Source: Gnetum montanum (Eukaryota > Plantae > Gnetophyta). Taken from it: DNA of 64,000 nucleotides. The stretch spans positions 958,398-1,022,397 of the forward strand of contig MNCI01002813.1 of the NCBI GenBank assembly GCA_015680685.1, in the 5' to 3' direction. Positions within the stretch are counted from its first letter, which is position 1. Each line of letters starts with the position of its first letter. A program made the position numbers and the translations under genes. Below, one piece after another: positions 1 to 63,400 of the stretch. The notes under the pieces are model-generated. The model had not been told where the DNA came from, did not search any database, and was given only the letters and a program-made list of their open reading frames with translations.

Positions 1-152
1 TGACAACAACAAGTAAGTCTGGGAAGACAACGAATGATTAACCTCAAATGTTCCATGGGGCGTTTAGGCATTTAGTCTGCGGAGTTCGACCAGATCACGC
101 GTGCTACGCTCGTTTCATATGGTTGAGTGTAGGGGTACCTCGCCACTCATCA
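1..152 (+). mobile_element. 3' end of an Athila-like gypsy LTR (3' LTR or solo LTR; same family as 59380-60461)
   Basis: Closely matches the reverse complement of 59380-59530 and ends ...CGCCACTCATCA at 152. No PBS follows. CpGs are retained, suggesting a young copy. Confidence 0.85.
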
Positions 153-12200: not shown

Positions 12201-12803
12201 ACCAATAATACGTTAGTATTCTTTACATGTAAGCTACTTATTAATTCCACCATTATTTTTTCTATGAAAAATTTTAGGGTTATCATATTACCACCCGTGC
12301 ATGTTTTCAAGGTAACTTATACCATCTATTACATCGTGTCCATCTTTTAAGGATGTCACTTCTTTAATAATCCTAGCAAGTGATTCTCATGACATTAGAA
12401 ATTAATTAGTTTTGCCAATTTCATCTATTCATATAGTGATTTGCTTAGGTTACCACATTGGCATGAGTACCTTAGTATTTTGCTTTTGATAAGTATTGAA
12501 TTATGACCTTGTAGTTAAGGATTGAATTATGACTTGAAACTATTTAACTTTACATTGTGACCTTTTAAAACTTAGATAAAACATAAATGTGTTGAATTAA
12601 AACTTACAACCTTTTATAACAATAAGATGTCAACCTAGTTATAAAAACTTTTGATTTGGAAGTTCCAAGTTTGTGGTTAGCAATAGTGAGTTATAAAGGT
12701 ATGATTTAACGATGAGGTGTTAGCGTAGTGGTAAGACTCTTGATTTGGAAGCTTCAAGTTATGGGCTCAATTTTGGTGGGCAATTCTAAATTATAAAGTT
12801 CTA

Positions 12804-12969
12804 GAGGATCATCATCTAGAGGCTCAATGCTCATACCACTAAGGTAGGGTCTTGGGAGAGTTAGTGGATGAGCAAAAGCCTAACCTTTTTTTAGTGGTTA
12901 CATCCTCAAACCTAGGTTGTATGACTTGAAAAACAAGCACCTTACCATCACTCCAAGTAGTGGTCCCTC
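12804..12969 (-). mobile_element. Au-like tRNA-derived SINE (family B) inserted in a family-A SINE
   Basis: Minus strand GAGGGACCACTACTTGGAGTGATGGTAAGG...AGGTTAGGCT...CCCAAGACCCTACCTTAGTGG resembles the plant Au SINE layout. Flanked by a ~15-bp TSD, AATTATAAAGTTCTA / AATTACAAAGTGCTA. Confidence 0.7.
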
Positions 12970-13338
12970 AATAATTACAAAGTGCTAATGAGATCCAATG
13001 CATTAGCACTAGTATGATTGCACCCTAAATTATGGAGTTCTAATTGGACTATATATCTTGGGGTGTACCTATATTTCAATTACTTATAAACACACATACA
13101 CATAGAGAACATATAGTTGACTCTCACTTACCTTTTAATGAATGAAACTAAAAGTGAATGTTTTTATTTATTTCCAGTGAGACCCTCTTAGATCCATTGG
13201 AACACACTAGGTTTAGATTTTGTTTCACAACAATTGTCCACTGAAATCATATCAAGTCTACAACTTGGAATTCCCATTTCAAGGCTCTCATTGTTAGCCT
13301 ATATATTACCAATTCAAGTATCTAAAAAACCTACATAT

Positions 13339-13505
13339 AAAGATCATCACCTAGAGGTTCAATGCTCATCCCACTAAAGTAGGGTCTTGAAGTATTAGTG
13401 GATGAGCAAAAGCCTAACCTCTTTCAAGTTGTTACACTTAGGCTTGAACCCTAGTATTATGACTTGAGAAACAAGCATCCTACCATCACTCTAAGTAGTA
13501 GTTTC
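13339..13505 (-). mobile_element. second family-B (Au-like) SINE with long TSD
   Basis: Aligns with 12804-12969. TSD TATCTAAAAAACCTACATATA (13319) / TATCTAAAAAAAACCTATATATA (13506). Confidence 0.75.
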
Positions 13506-19039: not shown

Positions 19040-20959
19040 CTGCAATGACAAACATAACCTAGGATTACTTTTAGTTTATAATCCTTAATTATTTTAATAC
19101 CTTTCTTATTAGATTAGGTTACACTTATGTTTGTTTGTGATCTTGGTAGGTTTATTATTTTAGGATAAGTATTTTAATATTGTTTTGATGAATGAACCTT
19201 GGGAAGTTAGAAACATTTTGAAAAATTTTCTATCATAAACCAAAGCTTTGTGGCCTTTACGATGTAAAGATTACCTCTGGTAGTGAGAGGATCAAAGAAC
19301 AAGGTGAATCAAGTGAGTAGTTTAAAAGTTAGAGTGCTCAGAAGGTCTTCAAGCTTTGAAAAATGTAAAAACTCCTCTTTCCTTTGGAATAAATGGTGAA
19401 AAATTAGCTAAGTATTGCATGTATATATACTATTTTTCTACTACATCAATAGGAATGCATCGATGTAGCTATATAAGGTAATTTTTCACAATAAGAAAAT
19501 GAAGGATTTTGAAAGAGTTTGGAATGAAATAAAAGTCCAAATGAAGCTAGAAAAGCATAAAAGAATTGTAAAACATAGAAGAGGGATTAAATTTGTTGGA
19601 AATGAGGTTTAATTATATTTAGATGAAATATAAATGCCAAAATGATGTAAAATTGGATGTGCAGAAGGTGAAATGACCAAATTGATTACAAAAATGACAA
19701 AGGAATAGGAAATTTAACTTGAAAAGACCAAGGAGTATGCAAGTGGATCCTCCCCAAAGTAGGCTCATATCATTAATGCCCTTGCACCAAGGATGATTAA
19801 TGATCATTGGAAGTTTAAAATTGAATCCACATAAGAAATCATGAAAATATTATGACATACTAAAAAAAAACACATTAATTAACCATGGTAGGAGGCAATG
19901 AGGTGATCAATGATGAGAGTAAAGGAATGGAAGAGAGAGATTAAGAGGAAAGTCTCACATCCTAGTCACATGAAGTCCTTGTGGAATTTGTGCTTAAGAT
20001 GATCTAATACCATCCCATCCTAAATTGGAACAAAGTCCATCCACATTCAGTCACTTTGCATTATCATGATCTGGTTGTTCAACCAACAAGAGTTCATGAC
20101 CATCATAAAGGACAACCACTACTCCAAGGAGAGAAGAAAAGAGAAGCAAGAAGATATGAAGGGCCTTAGTGAGAGGGGTGGTTTCAGACATGGGTAACAT
20201 GTCTTTTTAGCTTCATAACTAGTGCTTTTAGCCCATTATTGTGTCTAAGGGATGTGCTTTCAATTTCCATGTTTGTTTCTATTTACAGGAATCACACCAT
20301 GCAAAGACATGTTTTTTGTTATGGTCAATAGTAAGAGTGGTGAGAGACCAATGAGAATCCTCATAAAACTGAAGAAGAAAGTTGGGTACATGAAGTGAAA
20401 AATCTCCTTGAAGCCACACCCTTGTCCATTCCACTTGGTCAACTCCAAATTTTTTAAGTACCAAGATCACTGATTCTTGTTAATTTGTAATTATGGAAGG
20501 ACCTCATGCTTCCAAGATGAAGAACCTCATAGAGTTGAGTGGAATCAGTGGATGACGTGGACTCACTGCCTAACATCATTAGAAAATTAATGCTCCATTA
20601 ATTAAGGACATAATCCCAAGATGAAATCTAGTCATTGAACAATCAATCCAAACATTAAATATAGTAGTAAATGAACTTCTAGTAGTAGTAGCAATTGTAG
20701 TAAAGACTCAAGATTCTTGATGAACAATCAAGAAAAAAATATGTAAAAGAATATAAGCAAGGTAAAATATCTGAAATAAGTTGTAAAATATTCAAGAAAA
20801 ATAAAAACTTCTAAATAATGGTATAAAACAAAAAGTTAAAAAACTAGGTAGCCTAGACAAAATCTTAACATGGGTAGCCATCTCCCCCATGATTGAGTTG
20901 GAAGGAGGAGATCCAAAAAATAGAACATGCTTGTCCATCAGTTGAGGTGTCCATGTAAT

Positions 20960-23900
20960 TGGTTATTCTTGGTTCTAGGAAAGGTTTCAATTAATGAAAG
21001 TTAACTAGCAATCATTTGTCTAGGCTAGAAGGATGGTAAATCATCATAGCCCTAGAAGGAAAAGTTGTATGAATAATATAAGATCCTTCCCATAGTGTTT
21101 GAATTTTTTTTTCATTGTGGTACATGCATGGGATTCCAGTAAAGAACCTTATTGCCTAGTTGGAATTTAACTTTCCTTATGCATGAGTCATGGTGTTGTT
21201 TGGTGTGTGCCTTATGCACCTCATTTAGGCATAGGGCTACCTATTCGTTTTCATCTAATACACTTAGTGTCATTAAACATTCCTTTGGTACTAGACTTAA
21301 ATTAAGGTCAAGTTCGCAAGTCATTGAAAGTTTACAAAGCTTGTTTTGAATTGGTAGAGTTGATGATTTTTCGTACACTAGCTCATAAGGGGAATAGCCA
21401 ATAGAAAGTTTCCAAGTGCATTGACAGGACCATAGAGCATTTTTGGGCTTTGTGTTCCAGTCTTTCCTATATTTACTAACTGTGTGTTAGTATTTTGGCT
21501 ATTTTCCTATTGGGGACTTTGGCTTTACCATTAGCTTGGGGATGATATGGAGTTGTTAATTTATGCTTTACCCCTAAGTGTTACATTAATTTTCAAAAGA
21601 TAGCACCTATGAAATGAGTTTCATTGTTAGAAATAGATGTCCTTGGCATGCCAAACCTATTTACCACATCTTCTTGTATATAGTTTGTGATAGTGGTAGC
21701 TTTAGCCCATTTTGTGTAGTGATGTATGCCTTTTTGTTGGACATGAGGTTGATGAGCCCCATGAAAGAAATGTCCCAAAGATCGAAAGGCTCTAGTGGTT
21801 CTATGGATTCTTCTATTTGTTTAGTCATCCCTCCATCTTGTTGGAAGTGTTCAAAAAAAACAAGAAAATTGATGAGCATCCATGAAGATTATTGACTAGA
21901 AATATCCTACCATGAAGATTTTTATGACCATTCTCTTCCTTGCATAATGGCCCCCATAAAGGCCTTCATGAGCATCCTAGAGGATTCGTAGTTGATGAGC
22001 ATCAAGTACACACCATTGTACTAAGCCATCAACACAAACCCTGTAGAGGTTACTTTTAATTTCCATGTAGTGTTTGGCTTGGTGAAGAAATTGTTGTTTC
22101 TTCCTACTATCCCATTCTTGTGGAACCTGCTGAGTGAGTAGATATGAGAGGAATTTCTTGTACTAGTTAGGATCTTTGGGACTTTACATTTTAACAACTT
22201 TGACAAAGATGAGTTCATCTAGAAATTGGTTGAATAAAGGCCCCTCATCCTCTTTTTTTTCCTATTGTAACTGAGACAAGTGGTTGATGATCATATTCTC
22301 AGTTCCCTTTTTGTTCATCATACTGAGGTCGAACTCCTATAGGATTACTAGCCACTATGTGATACAAGGGCTTATTATTGATTTGTTCATGAGGAATTGG
22401 ATGATACTATGATTTTTGTGTACAAAAACTTGATATCCAAGCATATAGAGCCTAAATTTTTCTAAGGATTACACCACCACCATGAGCTCCTTCTTTGTGG
22501 TGGTTTAGTTCAATTGTGCCCTCACAATGCTTTGGCTTGCACAATGGATGTAATAAGGATGTTTCTGATCATCTAATTGTGTAAGCACAACCCCTAAAGC
22601 ATAATTGGGTGCATCTATCATGATGTGGAAAGTGCTAGACCAAATATAAGCACATAGAATTGTAGTTTCTACTAGCTTCTGCTTTCACTTTTGGAATGCT
22701 AGATCACATTCCTTGGTCTAGTTGAAGGATGCATCTTTCTTGGTTAGCTCAACCAATAGCTTAGTAATTTTTGAGAAGTTCTCAATGAAGCATCAATAAT
22801 AACTAGTATGGCTAAGAAATAACCTTGCATCTTTCACTGTTTCAAGTTTCCTTGTGATTTCTTGGATGACTCGTACCTTTTCCAAGTCCATCTTGATCCA
22901 TTTTTTCAAAATTTTGTGCCCCAATACAATGCCTCCTTAGACCATGAGATGGCTTTTCTACCAATTTTGCTTTAAGTTAGTCTCCACACATTGTTAAAGC
23001 TCTTTCTTAAGATGCTCCAAGGCTTACTTAAATGTGGTATCATAAGTAGAGAATTCATCCACAAAGACTTCTATCCCATTACCAATTTGTTATTGAAAGA
23101 TGTTGAGAACCAAGCATTGGAAGGTAGTAGGGACATTGCATACACCAAAGGGTATCTTTTTGTATGCAAAAGTTCCTTGGGAACTTGTAAATGTGATTTT
23201 GGCCTAGTCCTTAGGTGCAATCTAGATTTGATTATATCTACTATAACCATCAAGAAAACTATAATAGCAATGCCCTACCATGATGTCCAACACTTAATTA
23301 ACAAATGGAAATGGAAAATAATCCTTGAAAGTAACCATGTTCAATAGCCAAAAATCTATGCAAACTCTAAATTTTTCTCATTTCTTAGGTGTAGTAACAA
23401 GTGGCCTAACCCATTCACTATCCATAACTGGATAGATGAATGTCATCTTGAGGACTTGTTCAACCTCCTCCTTGGCAACCTACTTTAGTTGGGAGTTCAA
23501 TATTCTATGTGGTTGCCTCTTCGGCTTGATGGAGAAGTCTGTATAAATGCAAGGTTGGCACATCCATGGATCTATTCCTATAAGTTCATGATATGATTAA
23601 GCAAAGGTTGTTGGTAATTTGTTCATCACCTTCAATAGCTTCTTTTTCTATTCTAAAGCAAGTTTGGAATTGATGATTACCGGCTTACCATTGTTAAGAA
23701 AAGCATATTCCATAGTGATTAAGGATCTCCAACTCTTCACATTCCATTTCACTTTGTGTGTGGGAGAGTTGGTGATGGAGTTGCTCCATTTCATCCATGT
23801 TCTCTATATAGGTTCTAGTAAATCTCTCTGATGGTTCCATGCACATGGTGGACTCAGCTTGGTGATCTATTATTAGCCACTAAGTACCTTCTTGATTTGT

Positions 23901-26349
23901 GGTTGCTACATATAGGCACTTTGGAATAAATGTTGTTTCAGCACACTAATTGCAAGCTTGGATTGATGTATATTTGATCATCCATAGTTTTTGCATGCAA
24001 TGGAACCTTCTATTACTATATGTAATGCACAAAACCCTCTTCTTCTCTTCCATATCAAATTCATTTTCTTTGAAAGTTTCCAAGAAAAGGTCTTGAATTT
24101 TCATTTTGGTATTTATGATACTAAGACATGCCCTTCCCATAATGATAGGAAAGTTTTCCTTACAATTTTCCACATGGATCACAAGGAAATTTGTAAGATA
24201 AGACCTTCCACAAACAATGGTTACAATTTCCTCCACTAATCCCAAAGGGATAGTGATGGACTAATTTGCCAGTTCAAGTGTAATATTGCTCTTCTTTAGA
24301 GGAGGCAAATCCTAGGTCTTATACATTTCTTGGGAGATTAAGTTGATCCTATAAACTAAATCTAATAGAGTCATACATGGTTTATTTCCTATAATCTAGA
24401 AACCTTAGGATTTTGCTATTGTGGTGGTGGCATCCCCCACAGTTGTGGGTGTTACCACTATTAATATTGCTCCTAAGGTTGATAAGGTGCTCCACTTGGA
24501 TAATACATTGGTTGATGGAACTACTGGTTGTAGTTGCCTTAAGGTAGTCACTTAGGTGCTTATCATTTTGCAAATTTTGAATTTAATGCATACACCCTAG
24601 ACTTCTACAAATGTGACAACACTGAGCAACATCCCTTAGGATGTTTGTATTGGAAAATTTCATAGTCATCATCATCTATTTTAGAACACACAACCTCTTC
24701 AATTGCTATATCTTTACCCTTGTTCTGATAATAACCTTTATGTATCCTACTTCTTCCTTCTTTCTTAATCACTACTCCCTTAGTTCTTTCATTCCTCTGT
24801 GATTTTCACAGCTATTTAAAACTTCCCATCTAAGAAGTCTTACATTTTATCTACCTTAGTTGATATTTTAGTGATAGATTTTGATATTAGTGAGGCCTTA
24901 CTTTGCATCAATTCATCAAGCACTATCTCCCCCTCAAAGTCATAGAAATTTACCTACCTTTTACAAAGGGAGGAATCCCTATTATATTCTTCTGCATTTT
25001 CATGCCTTTTCAACTCTCCTTCTTCTTTAGCACCTATTCAATTAAGCTTTGAATCTGATGATATTGCATCTTAGAAAATCTTCCCTAGGCATAGACCCCA
25101 AGGCTTTTTCTTATCTTGATTTTGAATCCATCTACAATATGGTGAAGCTATTCTCTTTGGGAGTGGCCTAGGCATCAGTGCAATAGAGAGTAGTACCTTC
25201 CCAAGGCTGTATCCAAGGATTCTACAAGGCATAGGCATCATGAAAAGCTTGCATGATTCTATGGATGTGAATTATATCCCCCTTCAAACTTGGGAATGTT
25301 ATTCATATTTAACCTCTTAATCCTACTATCCTTCAAGTTCCTTGTTGGAATTCTTACTATCTCTAAAATGTTAAGAATATTTTAGGTAGCCAATAGAGGC
25401 TCATCATAGTCATGATGATCGCAGTGCCCCTTTCATGGCCATGATGTCTATAATGATTTTTGCTATGCCTTCAGTCTCTATGATATTTTTCTCTCCCTTG
25501 TGGTTATCTTTGCACTTGATCTTGATCACCTTGATGGGATCCTTGTTCATTTTTTTCCTACTATTCATCACCATCCTAATCTCAGCTATGTCTCTTGTTG
25601 TCTTTGCTCTTGTTCCTCCTATAAGAGTTTGAGGATGAAGATGAAGAAGATGATGAGAGTGAAGAAGAAGAACTAGGAAAATGATGCCTAGCAATTTCTC
25701 TCCTTCAATTTCTTTTCTAATTTGATCATTATCCTTTGATCATTGTCTTTCCTTTGATCATTATCCTTTCCCTTAAATGCATGGTTATGATTTTTATATT
25801 TTAAGGCCCCTTAGTCTTGAGACCCAATTTTTCCATTATAAGGTTCTCTAGAGTTGACTACAATCTTTGATTAAGGGTCTTCTCATTATAGAGAGGAGAA
25901 GAATTTGTGTATTGTGATTGGCTAGAAAAGAAATCCTTACCCTCTTTGTATTATTGAATGAATAATTGGGTTGGAGTTCTCTTGTTCCTAGAGACCTCAT
26001 ATCATCCCTCCATGTGTCAATCTAGCCTATGTTGGGCATTGGTATGATGATAGTCCGTGTAAGTGTGGTCTTGGACTTCATAATTCAAGTTGAGTGTGGC
26101 AATACCAATTTTGATGAGATTGGACATTAGCATGATGGGAATGGATTAATCAGGAGGTAACACTATGTTGCCTTCCATATCTCCCCAACACCTTTGTACA
26201 TCTTGATAGAGGATGAAAGTAAAATTCGAATTATAAGGGTCTAGATGAGCATAGACAACTTCAAGTTATTGGGACTTCTTGGATGCCCGATCCTACTGAC
26301 TGGATCCTTTGTTATGTGATGGAGATTCATCCCTGTGAGAAGAAGCCAT
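20960..26349 (-). pseudogene. E1 gag-pol, disrupted
   Basis: Start MASSH at 26349; protease-region NFPIIMGRACL; RT, RNase H and integrase fragments (PLEPFDLWDISFMG, VVNRFGMPRTSISNNETHF). Confidence 0.85.
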
Positions 26350-27367
26350 ATTAGTTATTGATAAAAATAGTGTGCCTTTGGTATTTTTTTATTTCTTTAA
26401 TAATTTCCTTAGTGAATGGTAGTGGTTCATTGTAGGTTCTTCACAACATCTTTGTATAACTTCACAATCTCTTACTATTTAGTGCACTTAGCTAAACTAA
26501 GTCCTTGGTAATGGTGCTAATGATGAGCAGCAAGTATACCCTTCATCCAACCATACGAATCACAAGCATGTACCAACAATGTAGTAGAATTTCATAGACT
26601 TAGTTCCTACATTCACCCATAGTCCTAGACTATGAATCAAGGGATCATGTGATTGTTGTCTTTCTAACTCACACTTGTGCTATCTATGTGTATGGTTAAA
26701 TGTTAGTTAAGGCTTATGATATTTATTTGTGTTGGCATTTTTTATATATTTTCTCCTAATAACTATATGAGTAAATGAAGGCTTAATAATTAACTATTCA
26801 ATTAATTAGCTATTCTAATAACTAACTATCCTAACATAAGTAGCTGCTCCCACTTTATGTATACATCACAAGCTCATATTATGCTACTGAGTTACCAAAT
26901 GGCTATTACTAGGCATTACCAAATGGTCACTACTAGGATTACCAAGTGTAACATGTTATTCTTGAAGTGGTTGTCCTTATGTGTTTATGATTCAGTGCAT
27001 GAATTAGTTAGGACTATGAAAGTAAAGTGCATTGAAAGTAGAGTGCAAATAAGAGAGATTAAACTAATCCAATTGCTATAATGAATGTAAAAATTCTCAT
27101 CTTTATTGTTGTTTATACTAATGCATTCAGTTACATGATGCTTGAATAAAGATTTGTACAATCTCTTAAATTCACATTGTGATCACTCATTGGAATATAT
27201 TCTAACTTTAGAGGAATCAAATTGCAAGAGCTTTGCTACACTATGGACTTAAGATGCTATAAATGCAATTGGTATGCACATTTATATAGGCTTCAATTGC
27301 ATCAATGTTGATGCATCTACATCAATGCATGTCACCATGCATCAATGCGGATACGTCAATGAGGTTG

Positions 27368-30300
27368 TTTGGATATCTAATTTTTGTGCACACTAATCAT
27401 AGTGCAATTCACTTCCTAATGAATAAGCCAATGGTGAGCCCACATGTTATATGGTGGTTGGTGATCTTGTAGGAGTTTTATTTAGTGATTGTGGGCAGAA
27501 AGGGAACTAGAAATGTAGTTGTAGATCATCTATCTTGGTTAAGATGAGATAATAATGACAATAAAAAGCCTTTGTTTGATCAATCTTCAGATTGGCTTCT
27601 CTTTACCAAGACAATTGAAGTTCATACACTAAGGGTTACAAATTAGTATTACAAAGTTCTCTCATATCTACTCACATAAGACTCCTATTGAATGGGATCA
27701 TGGGAAGAAACAATAGTTTCTCCACTAAGTCAAACACTACATATAAATAAAGGGTAACATTTACAAATTTTATGTTGATGTTATGGTATGATGATGCAAT
27801 TCAACTAAGAGTACTCCAAGATACTCATGAGGGTTCTTGTGAGGGCCACTAGGTAGGAAGATGAATGGCCACAAAGATCCTAATGACAAGATATTTTTGG
27901 CCAACAATCTTCAAGGACACCTACCATTTCACTTATTTACGCAAGAGATGCCAATGAGATGGATGAATGAAAACTAGAATGGAAGGACCCCAATAGTGGA
28001 TTTAACCATTGGAGTCCTTTGACCTTTAGAGGACTGATTTCATGGGACCCATCACTTCCATGTCCAATGGGAAGTCATACATCATTGTTTTTGTTGACTA
28101 CTATACAAAATAGACTGAAGCCTGAGTTGTTTCTAATTATACCTCTACTACTATAGCTTGATTCTTTCAAAAACAAGTGGTAAATAGGTTTGGTGTGCCT
28201 AGGATGCTGATTTTTGACAATGAAACACATTTCATAGGTAATACCTTTCACAAGTTAATGTGATGCTTGGGGGTGCAACATAAACTTACAACACCTTACC
28301 ACCCTCAAGCCAATGGTCAAGTAGAAGTAACCAATAGGGAGATTACTCAAATCTTAACATGAACTATTAGTATATATAGGGAAGACTGGAGTACCAAACT
28401 CAACGATGCTTTATGAGCATACTGCTTAACATGGAAACTTTCTATAGGCTACTCTCCCTATTAGTTAATGTATGGAAAGTTACCCAAACTGCCAATTGAA
28501 ATTGAACTTTGTACACTCACAATAGCATGTGAGCTTCACTTAGACATTAACCTAGTACAAAAAGAATGACTCATAACACTCAACATGCTAGACAAAAATC
28601 AAAGAGTAGCTCTAATGATGAATAAATTGCAGAAGGCATAGAATAAATAATGTCATGATGTATAGATAAGTAATGTTGAATTGAAACTAGAAGATAAGGT
28701 TCTCTATTAGAATCCCATGTATTTGCCACAATGAACCTAGTTCCAGACATTATGAGAAGGACCATACATTATACAACTTGGGTAAACAATCCCTTACATA
28801 TAAGACCTATTGCTTATGCTATTTGGAATGATAATTTACCATCCAACAAGCCCTCAAAAGCACATGCTGGTTAGCATCCAATAACTTAAACCCTTTACAA
28901 ACTTCTAAGTAACTAGCTGCAACACTAACACCTCAAATCAAGAACAAGCTTTCTCCATTTTTTGAATCTCCTCCTTCCAACTTGGTTGTGAGAGAGATAA
29001 CCATCTATCATAACACCTATAATAGGATGAAAGAGCTTTTTCTTCTTTTTTTATTTTGCATAATTCTTTATATGTTTTTCATTTTCTTGATATTTTACTA
29101 ATTATCTTATTCATTTTCCTTTTATACATTTTCTACTTTTTATTTTTATTTTTGTTAATTTTATTTCATCTTAATTAAAATCTCTGATTTTTTTCCATGA
29201 CTACTGTGAACTTTGAAAATTTTTGAACATAACTATCAAGGTAATGATATAATACACAAGCCAATAGTGTCTTTAGATTATGCTTTCTACTAATAGTATA
29301 TCAATTTTTTGATGGTATTAGGCAATGAGTTTACAACATCCATCCATTCCATCTATCTCATGAGGAGTTTTGCATCATGAAAGCATGAAGGTTCTTTCAT
29401 ATCAAAACTAAAAACAACATATGATCTTGTTATCCAATGAACTAGGAAAGGACTAAGTACGAGTGGAAAAAGATGTGACCTTAAGGGGATTTGTTATGTT
29501 CTTTTCTCAACTTCCTTCTTAAGTTTTATGACTCCTCATGGGTATATCATCACTTCCACTATCAACCATAAAAAGAAGTATGTCTTTGTATGGTGTGGTT
29601 CCAGAAAAAAAGGGAATTCAAAGAACACCTCTTTGAAGATCTCTTGGAATACAAGCACTAGTTATGGGTCTGGAAAGACATGTTACTAATGCTTGAAGGC
29701 ACCCTTCTAACTAAGGCCCAAATTTCTTCATAACTACTTCTTTCTTATTTTGGAGTGATGATTGTCCTTTGTGGTTGTTGTCAACTCATGATGGTAGGAG
29801 AGGAGGAAAACATGAACATGAGGCTAGTGCAATTGGAGTGGACTTGGTCTAGACTTGGAATGAATTGGTATCGAGTCATCTTAATCATGAATTTCACTAA
29901 GGACCCCATGTGACCATGATTCGGATTGTTCCTCTACTGTTCTCTTTCTACCATTCTTGAACTTCATTTTCTATCACCATACTACCTCATACCATGGTCA
30001 ATTGATAGTTTCCTAAGCCAATCCATCACATGGGTATAGTGTTTAACTTGAACAACCATTCATCATCTATGGTGCCTACAAACTTCTTGTGGTGAGGTTA
30101 TGCAAGGGCATATTAGGCATAAGCCTACTTTGGGAAGGACCCACTTTCATATCTCTTTGTTTCCTTCAAGATAAACCTTATGACCATGGATCTTATTTTG
30201 ATCTTGATAATTTTGATAGATTGCATCATCCAATTTTTGCTCTAGTTTGGCATAAGGAAAATCTCCTAGTTACTCATCATGCATGGTTACAATGCTTTAA

Positions 30301-33300: not shown

Positions 33301-33773
33301 TTAATATTTTAGTCCATGGTAATGTGAGTACAATCACTTCGAGCATAATATACTAATGCTTGGTAATCCTAGTGGTGAATACTTCATACACCTTGCAGTA
33401 AAAACTTGGTAACCTAGTGATGTTGGTGTAAGTTTAGGATGTGTATAGGAAGTGGGAATGGATACTCTATGTTTAGGATAGCTTAGTCATTAATTAGTTA
33501 AAGCTTAATATCTCAACTATTTTCTTCCTTAATACTTTTTATAGATAAAAATAATAAAAATTATAAATACAAATATCTTACACCTCAATCACACTTAGCT
33601 ATACAGATAAAGTTAACATAAGTAATGATTGGGAAGACAACGACTAGTAACCTCACATTTTACTATCTAGGACATAGGCTACTTAGGTAGAAGGCATCCA
33701 CAAAATTTGATTGGATCATGCATACATGCTTGTGATTTGTATGATTGGGTGTAGGGATACTCACTACTCATTA
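27368..33773 (+). mobile_element. 5'-truncated Athila-like element E2 (RNase H tail, integrase, conserved spacer, ORF2, 3' LTR)
   Basis: HTNHSAIHFL RNase H end; integrase ([18 protein letters not shown]); ORF2 ~30330-32700; PPT TAGTCATGAAGGTA; LTR 32915-33773. Confidence 0.88.
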
Positions 33774-51025: not shown

Positions 51026-52290
51026 TGATGAAGAGTCTCTTAGTTAGCTATGTTGACAGGCATGCGTTGATGTAGCCTTGTTAATGCATCCCTATTGACA
51101 TATCCTCAAGATACGTTGATGCATATGTGTCAACACCATTCCACCCTAAGCCTATATAAATGCATGCACTATCCACATTTAGGACATCTTTGGTCATTTC
51201 CATAGAAAAGCTCTTTTAGTTTATTTTCATAGGGCTTAGCTAAATTTTCCTTTAAGTGCATATAGCATAGAATGAATTGATTGAATGGATTTTTATTGGA
51301 ATGGCATTGTACATAGACACATTCCATGAACAACAATGAAATCAACATTGGTTCCTTCCATTGCAACACTTGGATTAGCATTTAGTTTATTTTCAAGTAG
51401 TTTACTTTTAAATGGTTTTTTCTTTCCTGTGTTTAGGAAATTAATATTTTATTCTATAATAGCATAAGTACAACCACTTCAAACATAATGGATCAACATT
51501 TGGTAATCCTAATAGTGAATACTTGATTTAGCTAGCAGTAAACACTTAGTAAATCCAATAATGTTAATATAGGTTTAGGATGGGTATCGAACATGAGCAT
51601 GGATGCTTCATGCTTAGGATATCTAGGTTACTCATAGATGCATAATTAGTTAAAATTTAATAATTTAATCATTTTACTATCTTAATATTTTAATAATAAA
51701 AAATAACAAAAATAAAATATCTGATACCTTAATCTCACTTAACCATATCCACCAAGATAACACAAGAGATGATTGGGAAGATAACAACCAACAACCAAAC
51801 ACTTAGTCATCTAATATATTTAAGGCCTAAAGATTTCACAAAATTTGATTTGATTGCATGGACATGCTTGTGATTTGTATGTTTAGGTGTAGGGATCACT
51901 TACCACTCATCATTGGCATTGTTGTCAGGGATTCTTTCTTTGTTATGCACTAAGTATTTTAGATAATTAAATCCTACAAAAGTTGTTGTAAGGACATACC
52001 ATACTATCCTAAGAAAATAATAATATTTTATTCAAAGATACACTATAAGAACAAATTAAAATATGGCTTCTTCTAGTAGGGGTGATTCTCCACCTACCAA
52101 TGATAAGACAAGGAAAAACCTAGAGGAAGTTCCTTAATAATTCAACATGGTCTACACTCGTTTGGATCCATACCATCCAAACTTCACTTTCATTCTCCAC
52201 CAAGATGAGCAGCTGTGATGGAAATACCTAGAGGGAAATGTTATATTATCACATAATCATGTCATTCCATCAATGTTCATGATAACATTG
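51026..52290 (+). mobile_element. Athila-like element E3: 5' LTR, PBS and start of gag
   Basis: LTR 51026-51912 (TGATGAAG...ACTCATCA); PBS TGGCATTGTTGTCAGGGA (decayed tRNA-Asp type); gag start MASSSRGDSPP at ~52063. Confidence 0.88.
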
Positions 52291-52294
52291 ATAA

Positions 52295-52830
52295 AGCTCA
52301 TAGTCTCATTTTGCTTTCCTTTCCGTACAGTCGATAGGTAGGTTGGCTTGGATTTTGACACATATGAAGTTGTACTGTTCGGGTGTAAGAGTGGCATAGG
52401 TAGGGTCTTTGCCCTGTATCCTAAGCGACTGGCGTGTAGGGCCTTGAGGGTTTACTTGTTCAATGATAGTTATGGATTCCGTAGCAGTCACAGGGTTTAG
52501 ATTTTCAACGATTGGTAGTATTACTAGGTTGATTTGGAAGGATTCCATGATGAATGTGAGTAGACTGGGCTAGATGAATGGGGTTGGATTGTAAGCAGTT
52601 GCACTATGGAGTGACACAAACACAATGTAACCAAACCAATAAAACCACACTGTGACAGAGAGCAAGCTCAGCATGAATCACAAGACAAGCTTAGTGTGAC
52701 CAAATAGGACAAGCTCAGCGTGACCAAACATGACAAGCTCAGTGTGACCAATAGATAAGAGACGCACAGGATAAGATGAAAAAGTTTTGATAGAGATGTT
52801 TTATCAAAAAACAAGTGAGTTGATCCTCCT
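52295..52830 (-). mobile_element. fragment of an unrelated retroelement leader/gag N-terminus with four ~24-bp repeats
   Basis: Minus ORF 52306-52548 (PTRQSLRIQG) and tandem ACAAGCTCAGCGTGACCAA units at 52661-52752. Identity is inferred. Confidence 0.4.
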
Positions 52831-52839
52831 TGTAATGCC

Positions 52840-53700
52840 AAAAGCTATGCATGCCCAACAATCTCTCAATGTTTGTTTACCTTCCAGCCTTACACCAACA
52901 ATTTAGGTCAGTACAGGTAGTTTTCAAACTTGGGAAAGATTCAAAGGTTTGAACAAGGTGTGGATTTGAGGGAATTCAAAGCTCTTTGTACCTCTCTACT
53001 TACTTGAGTGCATGAGTGTTTTTATGGATTTCTTATAATTTTGTGTCAACCAATAACAAGAAGTTGAATAACTCTTTGCATGGTGTTGTTTCCATCTAGA
53101 AAAATATTTAAAAATATAAAATACAAAATAATAATAATAAATGAAATGATGAATATTCAAATCACATCCATTAGATAAAATGATTGGCTACAAGCACTAG
53201 TTATGGAACTAGAAAGACATGTTACACATGCCTGAAGGCCTTGTCTACCTAAGGCCTTTTTTCACTTTCTTCTTCTCTTTTCTTCTTAATTAAGGAATGG
53301 TGATTGGTCTATGAAAGTATTCTTATGTCTCAATAGGGTGGAGTGGTCTTAGAGTGGTGATTCAAAGGGACTAAAAGTGGTTAGTTTTGATCTAGACTAA
53401 GGATGGACTTTATTGGGTCATTTAACCATAAAATCCACAAAGGACTTCATGTGACCATGAGTGGGAATTTCATTTCATTTTCTCTCTCATCCATCAATTC
53501 TTTTCATAACTCACATCACTACTGGTTGTCCATGTTCTTGTTCAATGTCTTAGTTTGATGTGTTGAAATTCTTAGATAGATTCTTCCGAATTTGATCCTT
53601 AAACTTTCATAACCATTAATCAAATATGGGGATCACAAACTCCTTAGTTGAGGTTATGCAAGGGAAAAAATGGCATGTGCCTACCATGGGGAGGATCCAC
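52840..53700 (+). mobile_element. Athila-like post-integrase conserved spacer fragment
   Basis: Shares motifs with 29400-30150 (CTCTTTGCATGGTGT, AAGCACTAGTTATGGAAC..GAAAGACATGTTAC, GCCTAC...GGGGAGGATCCAC). Confidence 0.75.
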
Positions 53701-56266
53701 AATGCTCGTAATCAAGTTGTACTCCTGCGTTGTGACGAGCAGCCGATTCCTTGATTAGCCGTACACATCCGTAGATGCTCGTAATCAAGTCGTACTCGTG
53801 CACACTAATAACAAAAAATAAATAGCAATAAATAAAACCATGTACTGCAAGGTTTATCCAATCAAGTTCGTCTTTATTGCCGTACACAACTTGAGTTCAG
53901 GTTACAAAGTTGCTCGAATAAAAAGCCGTTCACTCTAGGACTCCTACTGCAGGCGCATGGGAAATTAATCTAACTCTGGAGTGTTCAAATTGCCAGAGCT
54001 TCGCTACTTCTAGCCAGGATTGGGAAATGAAGGGAGTGCCATCTCTTATTTATAGATATGGTGGCGGACCGTGATATCGTGACCTATGCAATATGCGTCT
54101 CATCATACCCCCATGATTGAATAAAAACTCGTCCTCGAGTTCCTTACAATGATATTAGGTAGGTATGGGATTATTAGGGGAAATGGAACTAATGGAATGA
54201 CATGTGAATGGTTCATTATTACAAGACTTTGACAAGACTGGTGTTCATGAAAACAAGGGTAAACACCTTATTACAATGACATCAGGCCACATTTGGCAGC
54301 TGAGAGAAAAGAGGAGAGAGAATAGAAGAGAAGAAGAGGGAAGAGTCTTGTTGCTGCCAACGCCGAGATTGCGCCTTCCATTGTCCATCCGTAAGTGCAT
54401 CATTAATCCTACTCCTTGCATAGCTGCTTCAACGCTGCTCCACTCCAAGTGTTTACTCTAGATCCATTTTGTTGTTGTATGATTGCCATCTGCACACACA
54501 ACACGATCATATATTAGCAAGGGTAATTGAATCATTAAGTAAATAATACCTTGCTTCAGTGTAGGTTCATTGGCTTGGTTGTGGTATGGCTGAGCTGGAT
54601 TTGGGAAGATGGAAATGATGATTACCGAAGGTGTAGGGGTTAGGAATAGAAACGAAAAAATTCAGGGCTTAGGAGAAAAATCAAAAAAGTGGGCCCCATA
54701 CCCCCATGACTAATCGCGAACCTCCGGTAGCGATAGAATGGAGAAAGAAGAGGAGTAAGAAAGATAGGTAAAAAGGGACAACTATGGCATCGATGAAAGG
54801 GATGTCAAGATGGAAATGAACAAAATAATAAAATGAATTGCAAAATGTTAAGGGAAAGAAGTTAACTAGTGCTCCAAATAGGAATGTTAGTGGGTCCTCC
54901 CCAAAGTAGGCTCATGCCCTTAATGCCCTGATAATCCCACATTCAAAGAGTCTGTAGGCTCTGGGAATGTCCATTAGAACAAGAGTGAAAGTATTAACTA
55001 GAAGAATTTACCAAAAAGAAAATAATGAATCAACCAAAATATATACACTAATGATACAACCGGCAATGAGGTGAACAGTGGAGAGAAGGATGGAAAGAAG
55101 AGGATGGAATGGAATCCCAAGGACAAGGTGGTGTACAGCCCCTTGTGTGTTACATGATTAATGTGACTTGGTGAATCTCATTCCAACTCTGGCCTCAAAC
55201 CAACCACTTCCAGTGACTTCGCATCAATGCATTTGGTTAAACCATCCACTTGGATGACAAGGATGCATCGTCAAAGAGCCACCACCATTCCGACGAAACA
55301 AAGGAGAGAATGGGAAGCGAGAAGGGCCTTAGTTAGAGGGAACACTTAGGTTCCATAACCAGTCCTTGGAGCCAAAATTTTATTTCGTCTAAGGGGTGTG
55401 CTTTGAATCCTCACATTTTTTTTGTGTTTTGTGTTTTTATGCGTGGGGACCACACCATGCAAAGACTTCTTATTTTTATTGTCTTAGATTCCGATTATTG
55501 GGTAACATTGGAACGGTAAGAAAACTTAAGAAGAAAACATCCAAGCACCCAAGTGAATGACCAACACAAAAGCATCAAGTTCCCTTGAAATCACACCCTT
55601 TGCAATCCTTGAGTCCTTCCTTAGTTTGAGAAATTCCCAGTCACCGGTTCATTAAAGTTCTTATTGGAAGGGAACTGTACATTTCCAAGCCAAGAGAAAC
55701 CATAGACTTTGATGGATGGATGAATGAAGTGATCTCATTGGTTGCCATATCAAAAGGAACATACCTTAGTATCAACATTGTAACTTCAAGGTAAAAATCA
55801 AACACTAGCAATTAATGAAAAATAGTTCATTCCATCGACCTGAACACTTATTGGGTGACAAACTTACATGGTGGATGACACACAAAAAAAAAAAAAAAAT
55901 TATAACGATGTTGTAAAAAAAAATAGAAAAAGTTAAAGAAAGTTGTAAAACAAAAATTAGAAAAGTTAAAGAAAGTGTAAAATAAAAATGTGTAAAACAA
56001 AAACTGAAAAAGGACTGAGGGCCCCATATGATTAGCATAGGTGGCCATATCCCCCATGACTGAGTTGTAAGGGAGAGATTCGAAATAGTGAGAACCTATT
56101 TGAATTTCTAAGAAGTGCCCAAGTTCTCCCAATTGATGATCTTAAGTTGAGGGGTGGAAGTTGGTGACGCTCATGTTCCAATGCGTCTATGCCACAGTTG
56201 CTGGCATGAGTTTCCTCAGTTCGTTCCATGCATATTTTTCTGCTCCTACGAGTAGCTGTCAACCAC

Positions 56267-56719
56267 NNNNNNNNNNNNNNNNNNNNNNNNNNNNNNNNNN
56301 NNNNNNNNNNNNNNNNNNNNNNNNNNNNNNNNNNNNNNNNNNNNNNNNNNNNNNNNNNNNNNNNNNNNNNNNNNNNNNNNNNNNNNNNNNNNNNNNNNNN
56401 NNNNNNNNNNNNNNNNNNNNNNNNNNNNNNNNNNNNNNNNNNNNNNNNNNNNNNNNNNNNNNNNNNNNNNNNNNNNNNNNNNNNNNNNNNNNNNNNNNNN
56501 NNNNNNNNNNNNNNNNNNNNNNNNNNNNNNNNNNNNNNNNNNNNNNNNNNNNNNNNNNNNNNNNNNNNNNNNNNNNNNNNNNNNNNNNNNNNNNNNNNNN
56601 NNNNNNNNNNNNNNNNNNNNNNNNNNNNNNNNNNNNNNNNNNNNNNNNNNNNNNNNNNNNNNNNNNNNNNNNNNNNNNNNNNNNNNNNNNNNNNNNNNNN
56701 NNNNNNNNNNNNNNNNNNN
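56267..56719. other. assembly gap (N run)
   Basis: Run of N. Confidence 1.
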
Positions 56720-57647
56720 GTCCGCCAACTCTAGTTGGATGTTGCTCTTCTTAAGTTGTGGCAGGTTCCAGGCGTGATACATCTGTTGCGAAATTAAGTT
56801 GACTCCAGAACCTGAGTTAAGAAGAGCCCTATGTGGTGCATTTCCAGTGATCTGCAAATAAATAAAGGGACTCCTAGGATCAGTTAGTATCTTGGAAAGG
56901 TGGCTTACCTTGATCTAGTTAGTTACGGTATGTGTTAACATAACCGTATGCATTACACTCCCTTGGACTGAAGGGTTCTCCGAAGCGTTAGTGGTTAGAG
57001 GCCTATACATGTACCCATATGCTTGTTGTTGCGAGAGTTTGTCTGGGCTCCTAGTCCTGAAAAAATGTCTCTTCTTTGTACAATTGTCATTAGAACTAGT
57101 ACCCGGTTGGATATTTACATGCTAAATATTTACAGCTCTCGCGGTGTTACGTTGCTGCGGTTGAGTGGGTAATTCCCATTGCATTGTTGGAACAGGTTGT
57201 ATGGGAACTACAGGAGGAAGAGGTGCGGGTGGAGTTAGAGGATGGAATGAATGTGAGATGTCTCTCGGAGGAGAAGGAGTCCTTCTGAAGTACTCCCAAG
57301 CTTGGTAGTGAGGTTGGGGGGTAGTGTGACCCATAGAGTCACCTGGAGAAACCGACTGCTGCACATAATAACCGTAAGGATCAGGCTACCAGTAAGGGTA
57401 TTGTTGTGTTGGTGGTGGCGTCCACCATGACTATGGGTATTGCCACTGCTGATGTTGTCCAATGGGCTATGGAGGCATTCCACTTGGATAATACGTCAAG
57501 GGTTGGTGGAACTACCTTGGGTTACCTTGTGGATAAGGTAACCTTCAGGGTGTTTGCCGTTGATTAAGTCTTGGATTTAGTGCATACACCCTAGACTCCT
57601 GCAGATGTGAGATAATTGGGCAACATCCCTTAGGATGGTCATAGTAG

Positions 57648-58257
57648 NNNNNNNNNNNNNNNNNNNNNNNNNNNNNNNNNNNNNNNNNNNNNNNNNNNNN
57701 NNNNNNNNNNNNNNNNNNNNNNNNNNNNNNNNNNNNNNNNNNNNNNNNNNNNNNNNNNNNNNNNNNNNNNNNNNNNNNNNNNNNNNNNNNNNNNNNNNNN
57801 NNNNNNNNNNNNNNNNNNNNNNNNNNNNNNNNNNNNNNNNNNNNNNNNNNNNNNNNNNNNNNNNNNNNNNNNNNNNNNNNNNNNNNNNNNNNNNNNNNNN
57901 NNNNNNNNNNNNNNNNNNNNNNNNNNNNNNNNNNNNNNNNNNNNNNNNNNNNNNNNNNNNNNNNNNNNNNNNNNNNNNNNNNNNNNNNNNNNNNNNNNNN
58001 NNNNNNNNNNNNNNNNNNNNNNNNNNNNNNNNNNNNNNNNNNNNNNNNNNNNNNNNNNNNNNNNNNNNNNNNNNNNNNNNNNNNNNNNNNNNNNNNNNNN
58101 NNNNNNNNNNNNNNNNNNNNNNNNNNNNNNNNNNNNNNNNNNNNNNNNNNNNNNNNNNNNNNNNNNNNNNNNNNNNNNNNNNNNNNNNNNNNNNNNNNNN
58201 NNNNNNNNNNNNNNNNNNNNNNNNNNNNNNNNNNNNNNNNNNNNNNNNNNNNNNNNN
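57648..58257. other. assembly gap (N run)
   Basis: Run of N. Confidence 1.
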
Positions 58258-59802
58258 CTATATTTTGCAAGGCACAGGCATCGTGGAATGCCTGTAAATG
58301 ATGTTGAGGATCAGCGTTGTATCCCCCTTCAAAACGTGGGATATTATTTATGTCCAAACGCTTGATCCTATTGTCTTTTAAATGTCTTGTGGGGATCCTA
58401 ACTGCCTCTCTGATATCAAGCATGCTTCGGGTTGTGAGTAGGGGTTCATCATGATCATCTCTTTCATGATGTCTGTGATGTCTACGTGGTGGTTCCCTAC
58501 TCTCCATACATCCTTGCCCTTGTCCTAACTCCTCTCGACCTTCCTATCGAGGTCTTTCATCATCCTTTTTACTTTTACCCTCTCTGTTATGCTCATGATG
58601 GTTGCACCTAGATGTGGAAGGAGAGTGTGAATGGTGAGATGAAGGAGAAGAGGAAGGGGATCCATCACCGTGGTGATGTTTCTTACCTTCTCTTCAGCTG
58701 CTTCGGCCTCGATCGTTGTAACGATCTAAGTGTCTGTCCTTAGTGTTAGTGGTTGTTCCTACTGTGAACAGTTGGTGCTCACAAGGATCATCATTGTCTA
58801 AGAAATCCATGGTGAGGGGTTCCTCGTCTCCTACTTCACTAATGACATGGGGGACCCTGCCCTTCAACAATGAATGTTGGCTCTCCTGCCTTTCGTCCTG
58901 AATATGTTGCAAAGCGGTGGGATGATAATCCCTTATATGATATCTTCCAGCAACGTATTCAGCGAATAAGTCTTGCATGCCAATCTGTGCTAAGGCATAG
59001 AAAAGCATGTTCGGAACGGATCGATCTGATGGTAAAACGATATTACCAAACAAATCTCTCTAGTGCAACTGTTCATCTTGATGGAGAGTAAAAGTGTAAT
59101 TCGGAATATACTCATCAGGATGAGTATAAGTTATCGTATACTATTTAGGACCTGGCTGGTCTAGGTTATGCGTCTGATGCTGACTGTCTTCTGTATTGTC
59201 CTTAGGTGAGTTGATTTTGTGAGAAGAAGCCATTTTTATACTGGTGTGCTGTTTAACATTATTCTATGTTCTTAATTAATTGATTAACCCGAGGGTTCGT
59301 TGAGGTTCACAACGATGTGAATGATTCCCTTATGTTCAAATTGGCGTAAAAAACACTTAGTCCTCAGCAATGGTGCCAATGATGAGTGGCGAGGTACCCC
59401 TACACTCAACCATACGAATACGAGTGTGGACGTGTGATCCGGTCGAACTCCGCAGACTAAATGTCTTAACGCCACAAGAAACACTCAGGGTTAATCGTTT
59501 GTTGTCTTCCTAGGCTTGCTTGTATGTGTCATGGTGTCTGGTTAAGCAAGTCCAAGGTATATGATTTTTTTGGTATTTTTCAGTTTATCTCCTAAGCTAT
59601 GAGAGAAAGGGTTGAGAAACTAAGCTAACTCTAACTAAGGATCTAGGTCTAAATTAACTAGCGTCAGCATCCATTCCCACTTACCATACACACCTTGAAC
59701 TGTGCAACTGTGGCTTACCAAATGCTAATCATTACTAGGATTACCACACGTAACGCACGTGCTCGAAGTGGTCATACTGAGGCACCTAGTTAGCCTAAGT
59801 GT

Positions 59803-60087
59803 GATAAGTAGCCGATTCCTTGGCTAGCCGTACACACCCGTGGGTGCTCATAGCCAAGTCGTACTTATCCCACGTTCTAGCCTAATGCGGTGAGCAGCCA
59901 ATTCCTTGACTAGCTGTACACATTGGACTACCACTGGGATTACCAAGTGTAGATCCTAGAATACGCTACTGGGTTACCAAGCAGCCACAATGCTCGTAAT
60001 CAAGTCGTACTCCTGCATTGTGACGAGCAGCCAATTCCTTGATTAGTCGTACACATTCGTAGATGCTCGTAATCAAGTCATACTCGT
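59803..60087 (-). ncRNA. array of three covarying RNA stem-loop motifs in the EA LTR (putative U5 cis-element)
   Basis: Copies 60023-60087, 59892-60012 and 59803-59869 show compensatory stem changes; see findings. Confidence 0.55.
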
Positions 60088-60334
60088 GCACACTAACAAC
60101 AAACAATAAATAACAATAAATAAAACCATGTACTGCAAGGTTTATCCAATCAAGTTCATCTTTATTGATGTACACAACTTGGGTTTAGGTTACAAAGTTG
60201 CTCGAATAAAGAGCCGTTCACTCTAGGAATCCTATTGCTGGCACATGGAAAATTAATCTAACTCTGGAGTGTTCAAACTACCAGAGCTTTGCTACTTCTA
60301 GCCAGGATTGGGAACTGAAGGGAGTGCTGCCTCT

Positions 60335-60445
60335 TATTTATAGATATGGCGGCGGACTGCGATATCGCGTACGCGATATCGCAGGGAAGGACGCGATATC
60401 ACAGGGGATGCGATATCGTGGCAGATGTGATATCGCGGCCTGTGC
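60335..60445 (-). promoter_or_regulatory. EA LTR promoter: palindromic GCGATATCGC repeat array upstream of TATA box CTATAAATA
   Basis: TATA at ~60335-60343 on the minus strand, preceded by about five GATATC-centred palindromes. Confidence 0.65.
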
Positions 60446-60461
60446 AATATGCGTCTCATCA

Positions 60462-63400
60462 CCATTGAAATATGTATTTCTAAATAATGAAAAATTGGTA
60501 ATTATCGATGGTCATCTCATCAAGAATTAAAAGGAGGAGCTACTAAGCAAATGATCCATAGTCCTTGCATGGTTATATGATGAAATCATAGGGATATATC
60601 TTTACATATGCTAGAATTGAATTTACATAAACACTATTATTAAGTTCAACTGATAATTGCAAAGGAGGTTGAATTCAAAATTGAATGAAGTTGTTAAAAA
60701 GGAGGTAGAAAAGCTCTTGAACATTGGGTTTATTTATCCTATATTAGACAATGTGTGGGTTATCCCACCTATCATTGTATCAAGGAAATAAGGACAATGA
60801 AGGATCTCTATTAAAATCATATTATTGAGCATGAACACTTTTAAGGATTAATTTTCTCTACCATTTGTGGAGCAAGTTTTGAACACTATAGTAGGTCACA
60901 AGTATTCTAGTTTTTTGGATGGATACAGTGGCTATAAAAAAATCCAAGTTGCATCAAAAGATTAGGCCAAAACAATGTTTACAAGCTCCATGTTGCAATT
61001 GGAAAATTTGATCACTCGAAAAAATTGAAGAAGATCTAGTGCACAATAGTTCCGAAACCCATGAATCCCTAGGGCCTTCATAAAAAAAATGGGATTCAAG
61101 ACACCCTAGTCAATCCAATAGATTAATTAGGGAATTGGAGGATTTAAAAAATGGTGTAGTCAAATGGAATGCAAAAATTGATAATAGATCTAAATAATGC
61201 ATAGAAAATAAACAAATATATCTTACACATAAAACCCAAAACTTAAAAATTTATTGAGAAAAAATAAATATTAAGTTAGTGAAATGTGCTCAAATGGTGC
61301 TTGAATGGACAGTAGGAGGGTCCACTTGGATAGGGGTTCAGGTTCCATTGAAGTCGATATAGTCAACCTCATGATCTGGATGTCCTACTACTCTTGATGT
61401 TATCGAGCCTTTGATGCCGCAATCTCAGATCTGCAACATTGGATACTTCTAGGGGGTGAAAAAAGTAGAATATTTGGATGCTAGATTACTCCATGTTAAG
61501 GTTTGGGAATCCTAGAAGTGAAGTGTTGACACAAAAAATCTACAAATCTCAAGGTGATAGTGCTTCCATGTTGGGGTTCAAGAGAATGCAAACATGGGAG
61601 ATTGCAAGAGCCCTTGAGTAATTGAAAATACCCCAAGTGTGGAATTATTACTTATAGAATGTATGTCTGATCAATGTACTCAAGTGCCAAAAGAATTGGA
61701 TCCTCTCAATGGTGTTTGAGGTTGGTTTTTATAGGTTTTAGGCCATGAATGGGGTTGTAAAAATATGCCCCCTTGGTTTATGTAATGTCCCTACCACTTT
61801 CAATGTCTTATCCTTAGCATCTTTTAGTAGCAAATTGACAATGGTGTGGAAGTCTTCATGAATGACTTCTCCACTTATGATGTTGATTCTAATAGGCATT
61901 GGATCATCTTGTGCAAGTACTAAAATGATGTGTGAAGACTAACCTAAGGCTCAATTGGTGGAAAAGCTTAATGTTCTAGGAGGACATTGTCCTAGGGAAT
62001 CAAATTTTAATAAAAGAAATTAACATATACCTAGAAAAAATAAAGGTCATCGAAAAAATAATAAAATAACCTAAAATAGTCAAAGGATGTGAGATCATTT
62101 CTTGGACACACACACAATAATAGGCGAGTTTTCAAAAACTTATCCAAAATCACCAAACCACTCATGGAGCTCAATAAGGATGTAGCATTCAAATGGACTA
62201 AGAAATGTGAATAAGCATTCTAGCTCTTGAAATAGAAGCTTGTAGAAACACCAATTCTACACACACTAGATTGATCCAAACCATTCCACATTATGGTAAA
62301 TGCATCCAATTATGCATTGGAAACAATAATTACATAGATGGATGATCAAAAACATCCAAAGTATATCCATTATGCAAGTAGAAGCATTGTGGATGAACAA
62401 CTTAATTACATCTCAACAAAAAAAAAAAGAATTAATGGTGGTGGGGTATGCTCTTGAAAAATTCAAGTACTATGTACTTGGATACTTAATTTTTATGCAC
62501 ATTGATCATAGTGCCATTCGCTTTCTCATGAATAAGTTAATAATGAATCCTTGTGTTATACTATGGTTGGTGATCTTATATGAGTTGTATTTAACAATGG
62601 TAGATGAAAAGAAGATTGATAATGTTATTGCTAATCATTTATCTTGGTTAAGGTGGGATAACAAGGCTCATGAAGAATATTTATCTAACCAATTTTCAAA
62701 TGAGTTATTTTTCTCTAAGACAACTTTGATCATAGCGTCACCCAAAATTATAGATTAGTATGATGAATTCCTCACATACTTAATCACTTAGAAGACTCCT
62801 ATAGAATGGAATCATAAAAAGACACTACAATTCCTTCACCAAGTCAAATATTACATAGAGACAAGAGGTAACCTCTATAAAATCTATGTAGATATCTTGC
62901 TCTAATTATGTGTACCAAATAAATATTAACTTCAAGTTCTTTAGGATGCTCATGAAGGTCCTTGTGGAGCCATTATGTAGGAAGGAGAAAGACCATTAAA
63001 ATCTTGATTGTGGAATATTTTTGACACATAATCTTCAAATATGCCTATCTTTTTACCCATTCCTATAAATGATGTCAATAGGATGAAGGAATGACAACTA
63101 TAATGGAGAGATCCCAATAGTGTATTCAATTACTGGAGCCTTTTAATCTCTAGAGGACCAATTTTATGGAACACATCACTTAAATATCTAATGAAAAGTA
63201 TCATATTATTAGTATTATTGACTATTGCATCAAATGGGCTAAAGTTGTAATTGCACCAACTATAATTCTTCCACTATAGCCTGATTCTTTAAGCAATAAG
63301 TAGTAAACATATTTGGTATACCAAGAGAACTATGTTTGATAATGAAATTGATTTCACTAATGACACATTCTAGAAGTTGATGCAATATGTGGAGGTGGAA

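Follow-up and report, generated by a model that had tools for sequence, protein, structure and literature searches.

The closest described counterparts of the RNA module reported here come from several kinds of retroelement. In Ty1, the signals for packaging and dimerization are in the 5' RNA (PMC5454406, in the sections drawn on here), while for the MPMV/NXF1 CTE the relevant part of one study reports that duplication raises activity and proposes that the doubled loops help the element to compete for its host protein (PMC4338338). Retrozymes show that plant LTRs can carry ribozymes (PMC4918200, cited in part), and the TR-GAG1 leader is reported, in the portion of that paper used here, as being without significant RNA structure (PMC4350172). 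For plant Metaviridae, an extract of a modelling study states that the LTRs could not be modelled (PMC3601003). Our literature search, which had most subscription journals beyond its reach, found no description of a motif like the present one and none of covariation-supported motifs in plant LTRs.

Here we report, from a window of 64,000 nucleotides (the whole stretch of Gnetum montanum DNA that was analysed), a conserved and probably selected stem-loop module of a plant retrotransposon RNA leader, for which we found no counterpart in Rfam or in the literature. It is of a known general kind, the leader cis-element of an LTR retroelement, and the particular module is uncatalogued. Like psi, DIS and the Ty1 TIPIRT, it belongs to a structured 5' leader present at just one end of the genomic RNA and presents small exposed-loop hairpins in several copies; it differs from them in having no sequence match, in being tandemly amplified, and in lying wholly in U5 on the 5' side of the primer binding site (PBS), by contrast with retroviral psi, which is mostly 3' of the PBS. 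The element that carries the array, E4, resembles TR-GAG in being an LTR element with gag and without RT but differs in its length of ~6.8 kb with a protease remnant, against <4 kb for TR-GAG in the sections cited (PMC4350172). The features of E4 are as follows.

59380-60461, minus strand: 5' LTR of E4, a Ty3/gypsy deletion derivative; TG...CA, 1082 bp, its end confirmed by that of another family LTR, at window 1-152
60335-60342, minus strand: TATA box, with a 5' read pile at 60304
60141-60304, minus strand: R region, with 5' end at ~60304, AAUAAA at 60161-60166 and poly(A) site at 60141
59361-59378, minus strand: primer binding site, putatively tRNA-Asp-like
57395-59233, minus strand: broken gag, containing an N run; start at 59233 placed by eye against the Gag homolog P0001
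56741-56914, minus strand: protease fragment, weak (E 0.14, below the cut-off)
53697-54105, minus strand: truncated 3' LTR, after a polypurine tract

E4 is a Ty3/gypsy element and probably an Athila-like one, going by its gag (the homolog P0001 matches Retrotrans_gag), the RNase H region (RT_RNaseH) kept by the older element E2, a weak extra-ORF match in a relative (Transposase_32, E 1.2e-5, below the cut-off) and a PBS that is putatively tRNA-Asp-like. The Ty3/gypsy OTA and Athila clade definitions, which turn on RT/RH/INT phylogeny, the lack of an additional RNase H, an extra ORF and the PBS type, are those given in part of PMC6317226. E4 is colinear with E2 (15074-27367), relative to which it is without ~2.7 kb of RT-RH-INT and ~3.6 kb of 3' region, provided that the 453-base N run in its protease (56267-56719) has its true length. 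Since the N run in gag (57648-58257) has about the length expected from E2, the other run probably cannot hide an RT. The preliminary description, which spoke of an RT-less element, had also called the LTR young. This holds only in a relative sense: of 383 aligned positions the two E4 LTRs differ at 30, and 25 of these differences are transitions.

Several further features of the window were observed. The U3 of the 5' LTR contains CG-rich palindromic repeats (GCGATATCGC type) at 60345-60440 that are mostly absent from the 3' LTR and hypervariable in family reads. A conserved purine-rich internal motif downstream of pol occurs at 53660-53700, 54890-54929, 19742-19786 and 30042-30144, and the truncation of the E4 3' LTR adjoins the purine-rich internal motif of the neighbouring element. 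Positions 1-152 on the plus strand are the end of another LTR of the same family, 84% identical and with no PBS after it. Farther away are a 449-codon open frame at 2686-4035 (minus strand) with a weak PHD finger (E 0.0055), for which no homolog of similar length was found, and a nested cluster of inverted and direct repeats, MITE or foldback-like, at 12700-15070 and 340-502.

The array itself had been described as three units plus a copy in the 3' LTR; these are present at the positions and with the stems first given, and the count missed a fourth unit. The E4 5' LTR thus holds four tandem units, spanning 59663-60087 on the minus strand, and four older LTRs hold single units.

60023-60087, minus strand: unit 1, P1-CGA-P2 (8 bp)-CGA-P3 with a cUACGg-type tetraloop
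59890-60014, minus strand: unit 2, with two UGG-UAAN-CCA hairpins (59979, 59945) in the insert that caps P3
59803-59869, minus strand: unit 3, stems compensated, cCACGg tetraloop
59663-59781, minus strand: unit 4, ancestral-type, P2 CCACUU/AAGUGG, insert with two GGUAA hairpins (59746, 59720)
15389-15533, minus strand: single unit in older LTR E2a, located by eye, three GGUAA motifs in its insert
26836-26980, minus strand: single unit in older LTR E2b, from the descriptor search
33324-33469, plus strand: single unit in older LTR E3b, from the descriptor search
51464-51610, plus strand: single unit in older LTR E3a, decayed, located by eye

Unit 4, like its homologs in E2b and E3b, came from the descriptor search. 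In the truncated 3' LTR, unit 1 is intact (53735-53799) and unit 2 is represented by its left half; the 5' LTR copy of unit 1 bears four CpG/CHG-type decay changes. All nine copies share one layout, which runs P1 (AGUA/URCU core), CGA, P2, CGA, P3 (GCAY/RUGU), a variable cap, GUAYNNN, P2', a GAR-type loop and P1'. P2 has 8 bp in units 1-3, whereas in unit 4 and the old LTRs it has 6 bp and another sequence. The asymmetric internal loops are nearly constant, with a 5' CGA opposite GAAU(C)GG(C) and another opposite GUAYNNN. The apical domain is swappable, being either a tetraloop, as in the short natural unit of 65 nt, or 2-3 GGUAA hairpins. Both tetraloops, cUACGg and cCACGg, fit YNMG, of which uCACGg is named as a member in part of the literature (PMC2346598), but they cap only the short units, large inserts taking their place in the others. 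A pattern for the right half of the unit matched four times in the window, a number reached by none of 100 shuffles (mean 0.00), and a model of the nine copies (R1) recovered in the window only its 9 training copies, the next best match having E 0.2.

The presence of units in older LTRs changes how the history of the module is read. It had been thought peculiar to the young RT-less element and lacking from the older LTRs; the first idea finds no support, as older relatives carry a single copy and one of them retains pol, while the second holds for the LTR pair 4926-5514/9711-10312 (Copia-like by eye, no unit) and fails for two older related families, whose four LTRs have a single unit apiece. 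The distance from the LTR end is 402-460 nt for unit 4 and the old units, and units 1-3 form a ~300 nt insertion relative to the older LTRs. By sequence comparison, then, the module is ancestral in the lineage and only its amplification is particular to the non-autonomous E4. Read joints in DNA and RNA runs skip or repeat units, which indicates that unit number varies among family copies. The skip 59785-60101 was considered as a splice because of its splice-like ends; similar skips to 60101 in DNA contigs, together with the same layout in older LTRs, lead us to read these as subfamilies with fewer units. The family is very abundant, to judge by four DNA runs, bearing four organism labels, in each of which 72,000-100,000 contigs matched the LTR.

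To place the units within the RNA, we relied on read ends. Three runs from a single study had 156, 269 and 207 reads with poly(A) loose ends at 60141, and one run had 8 molecules with their 5' end at 60304; together these ends put every unit in U5, within the 5' leader of the genomic RNA; the earlier placement of the array in the leader, beyond the TATA box and an AATAAA, is thereby borne out. A 5' leader location is also what is looked for in a packaging signal. Reads at 59814-59887, over units 3-4, were sense-biased in two stranded runs (231 vs 26 and 46 vs 8), although RNA reads represent the family genome-wide rather than this locus, with 6-61 per run reaching >=99% identity, and could stem from read-through.

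Evaluation of the fold revealed pairing in 91% of 156 cells of the nine-copy alignment (A3), against 28-54% in slid controls, with 6 of 19 pairs changing on both sides. These covariation counts are inflated, because no more than about four independent lineages stand behind the nine copies, which also served to derive the structure. Between unit 1 (3' LTR copy) and unit 3, 11 of 40 stem bases differ, yielding five compensatory pairs and one U-G to U-A change, as opposed to 1 of 21 internal-loop bases (Fisher p 0.04), and random stem transitions kept all pairs with at least five double changes in 140 of 2,000,000 trials. G-U outnumbers A-C by 15 to 3 over the copies, with inherited pairs counted more than once, and this excess favours the RNA-sense strand. 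Identity between E4 and the old LTRs is 70% in the core, 51% in the downstream U5 and 72% at the LTR end. The near-invariant loops on changing but paired stems, and the leaning of G-U pairs towards the minus (element-sense) strand, had both been proposed from the first inspection, and they agree with these comparisons; the sense-strand RNA fold is probably under selection, on the evidence of the nine-copy pairing, the compensatory changes and the G-U bias.

Other measures were mixed. Fold z-scores on the sense strand were -3.3 for unit 1 of the 3' LTR, -3.1 for unit 3, -2.2 for unit 1 of the 5' LTR and only -1.1 for unit 2; on the opposite strand, unit 3 folds as well (z -3.9). Partition-function folding supported the short units alone: P2 probability was <=0.27 in unit 2 and all four old copies, fell to 0 in unit 4 once flanks were added, and ranged from 0.01 to 0.97 with context in unit 1 of the 5' LTR, so that folding energies give no support for insert-bearing units. 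A measure of further pair types was not above shuffles, 491 of 500 of which scored at least as high. At loop sites where the E4 copy departs (59850, 59900, 59915, 60047, 60057 and 60080), 76-92% of family DNA depth (run X5) has a CG-containing letter, and RNA reads show the same at four listed sites (59850, 59900, 60033 and 60047). These majorities mark the E4 loop differences as methylation-type decay after insertion; CGs outside the loops are likewise restored in the family majority, and hence this gives no evidence of loop-specific selection.

The inserts contain a second motif. UGGUAA-type sequences occur 2-3 times per insert in units 2 and 4 and the old LTRs, most of them foldable as small hairpins of the form UGG-UAAN-CYA with a bulged U, within 59720-59979 and the four older LTR units. 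We take this hairpin to resemble a 5' splice site and a coat-protein-type operator. GGUAA appears 1-5 times per LTR unit region in sense and 0 times in antisense, and no joint starts at a GGUAA site among the 15 joints listed of 28.

Comparison with known RNAs returned no relative. Rfam gave three weak unrelated matches over 52000-62000, none on the array, and 0 matches at E up to 10 for the array alone (59600-60150), consistent with its earlier presentation as new. A hammerhead has CUGANGA, GAAA and a cleavage triplet around a three-way junction, and a search of six regions, both strands included, gave 0 occurrences of its core motifs; with the Rfam result, this upholds the judgement by eye that the array fits none of hammerhead, hairpin, HDV, twister, pistol and hatchet. 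The supposed sarcin-ricin (loop E) likeness of AGUA...GAA would need unpaired AGUA opposite GAA with a closing helix on either side, and it was dropped because in P1 the AGUA is paired to URCU and covarying pairs outside it fix this register; the GUA/GA core of the second internal loop does, as we see it, resemble the sarcin-ricin motif. K-turn and 5S-derived (Cassandra-like) readings were dropped where the required pairing geometry or an Rfam match was missing. A scan with the right-half pattern gave 85 metagenome matches, none with the module by inspection, and viral scans gave 0, 0 and 33 matches, the last with a best model match of E 0.68; the viral collections held no Gag relative, and prokaryote genomes no homolog of the module, all of these collections being poor in plant DNA. 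Among five prokaryote matches, a Collinsella look-alike at three loci lies in a reading frame, has no clean P2 and has P1 broken in one copy, and we regard it as chance.

What the array does is best framed by its architecture: asymmetric loops that stay constant while stems are interchanged, a pair of them in each unit and as many as four units in a leader, best fit a protein-binding element. We tentatively prefer, at close to an even chance, a repeated protein-binding cis-element of the leader, most likely serving Gag in the selection and packaging of genomic RNA and amplified in a non-autonomous family. Gag is favoured because of the leader position, the amplification in a pol-less family and the analogy with Ty1, as far as the cited sections describe it (PMC5454406). 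A dimer initiation signal would call for apical loops that are palindromic or complementary to each other; the palindromes of the array sit in stems or inserts and differ between units, and a non-systematic look at loop-loop contacts identified no palindromic apical loop or kissing pair. It is also possible, although we think it unlikely, that a host factor binds the array and steers the full-length RNA, whether in CTE-like nuclear export, in translation past the leader or by keeping the promoter-proximal poly(A) site from being used; the GGUAA loops might then act as U1-binding decoys. Such a role would suit a strong poly(A) site only 163 nt past the 5' end, a 1.07-kb leader, counted from 60304 up to the likely gag start codon at 59233, with 16 upstream AUGs in the E4 copy (several from decay), and the sense-only GGUAA. 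The two similar internal loops per unit and the rod-like stem also recall the CTE design as described in the part of the source cited (PMC4338338), but the module has other loop sequences, lies in a 5' leader rather than a 3' or intronic position, belongs to a plant host, and matches no CTE, IRES or other family in Rfam. Moreover, since U5 lies behind the poly(A) site in either LTR, it cannot alone tell 5' from 3', and the want of listed joints at GGUAA speaks against the host-factor reading as well.

Three explanations without a bound leader factor have less to recommend them. Template switching can yield double changes without selection, and the hairpins could in principle have no function and have arisen by duplication and by template-switch correction in the course of reverse transcription, in keeping with the frequent gain and loss of tandem units in the family and with energy models that do not favour long units. 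We consider this improbable, since such correction would erase the G-U pairs, bulges and asymmetric loops that persist, and since the units keep their position and exceed flanking U5 in identity across families that are ~60-70% alike. A role at the DNA level, in which a transcription factor or anti-silencing protein would recognize CG-rich sites or minus-strand strong-stop DNA would form structures, seems very improbable: most of the constant loop bases are CG-containing, the array has a CpG observed/expected of 0.76 against 0.22 for the window, and unit 3 folds well on both strands, yet the downstream U5 is equal in CpG (0.73), so that the array is not special in this respect, and the compensated stems and G-U bias indicate the RNA-sense strand. 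Slightly more doubtful still is a new self-cleaving ribozyme, a candidate for retrozyme-like processing or for aiding termination behind the 3' poly(A) site. LTR replication needs the cap and R, which cutting in the 5' U5 would sever, yet an older relative that bears pol carries a unit. The compact fold, the constant internal loops and the setting in the LTR of a non-autonomous element do parallel retrozymes, the plant-LTR precedent (PMC4918200, in part), but by the figures in that part E4 differs in its 1.08 kb LTR (vs 300-400 bp), its gag and protease remnants, its missing hammerhead core and the sharing of the motif with that relative. The Rfam result tells against a known ribozyme, and reads from four RNA runs showed no pile-up of beginnings or ends in the array, a weak argument given that the libraries were not made for such mapping.

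Under the preferred reading of a Gag-binding leader element, the stems would space and orient the internal loops, which would be read by a protein, most likely the element's own Gag; extra units would raise avidity, and higher avidity might let the RT-less RNA compete better for particles shared with a helper. More speculatively, at what we would put at appreciably below an even chance, the module may represent a new class of structured RNA common to a lineage of plant Ty3/gypsy LTRs, in which a scaffold of two internal loops carries a plug-in apical domain and copy number serves as a weapon in the competition between parasite and helper for packaging. RNA selection by plant LTR retrotransposons, including how non-autonomous derivatives outcompete their helpers, has been little studied at the level of RNA structure, and with a natural 65-nt unit of constant loops, occurring in stem and copy-number variants, direct tests of Gag binding, export and cleavage become possible. 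Given the abundance of the family, the motif belongs to a successful element of a large plant genome.
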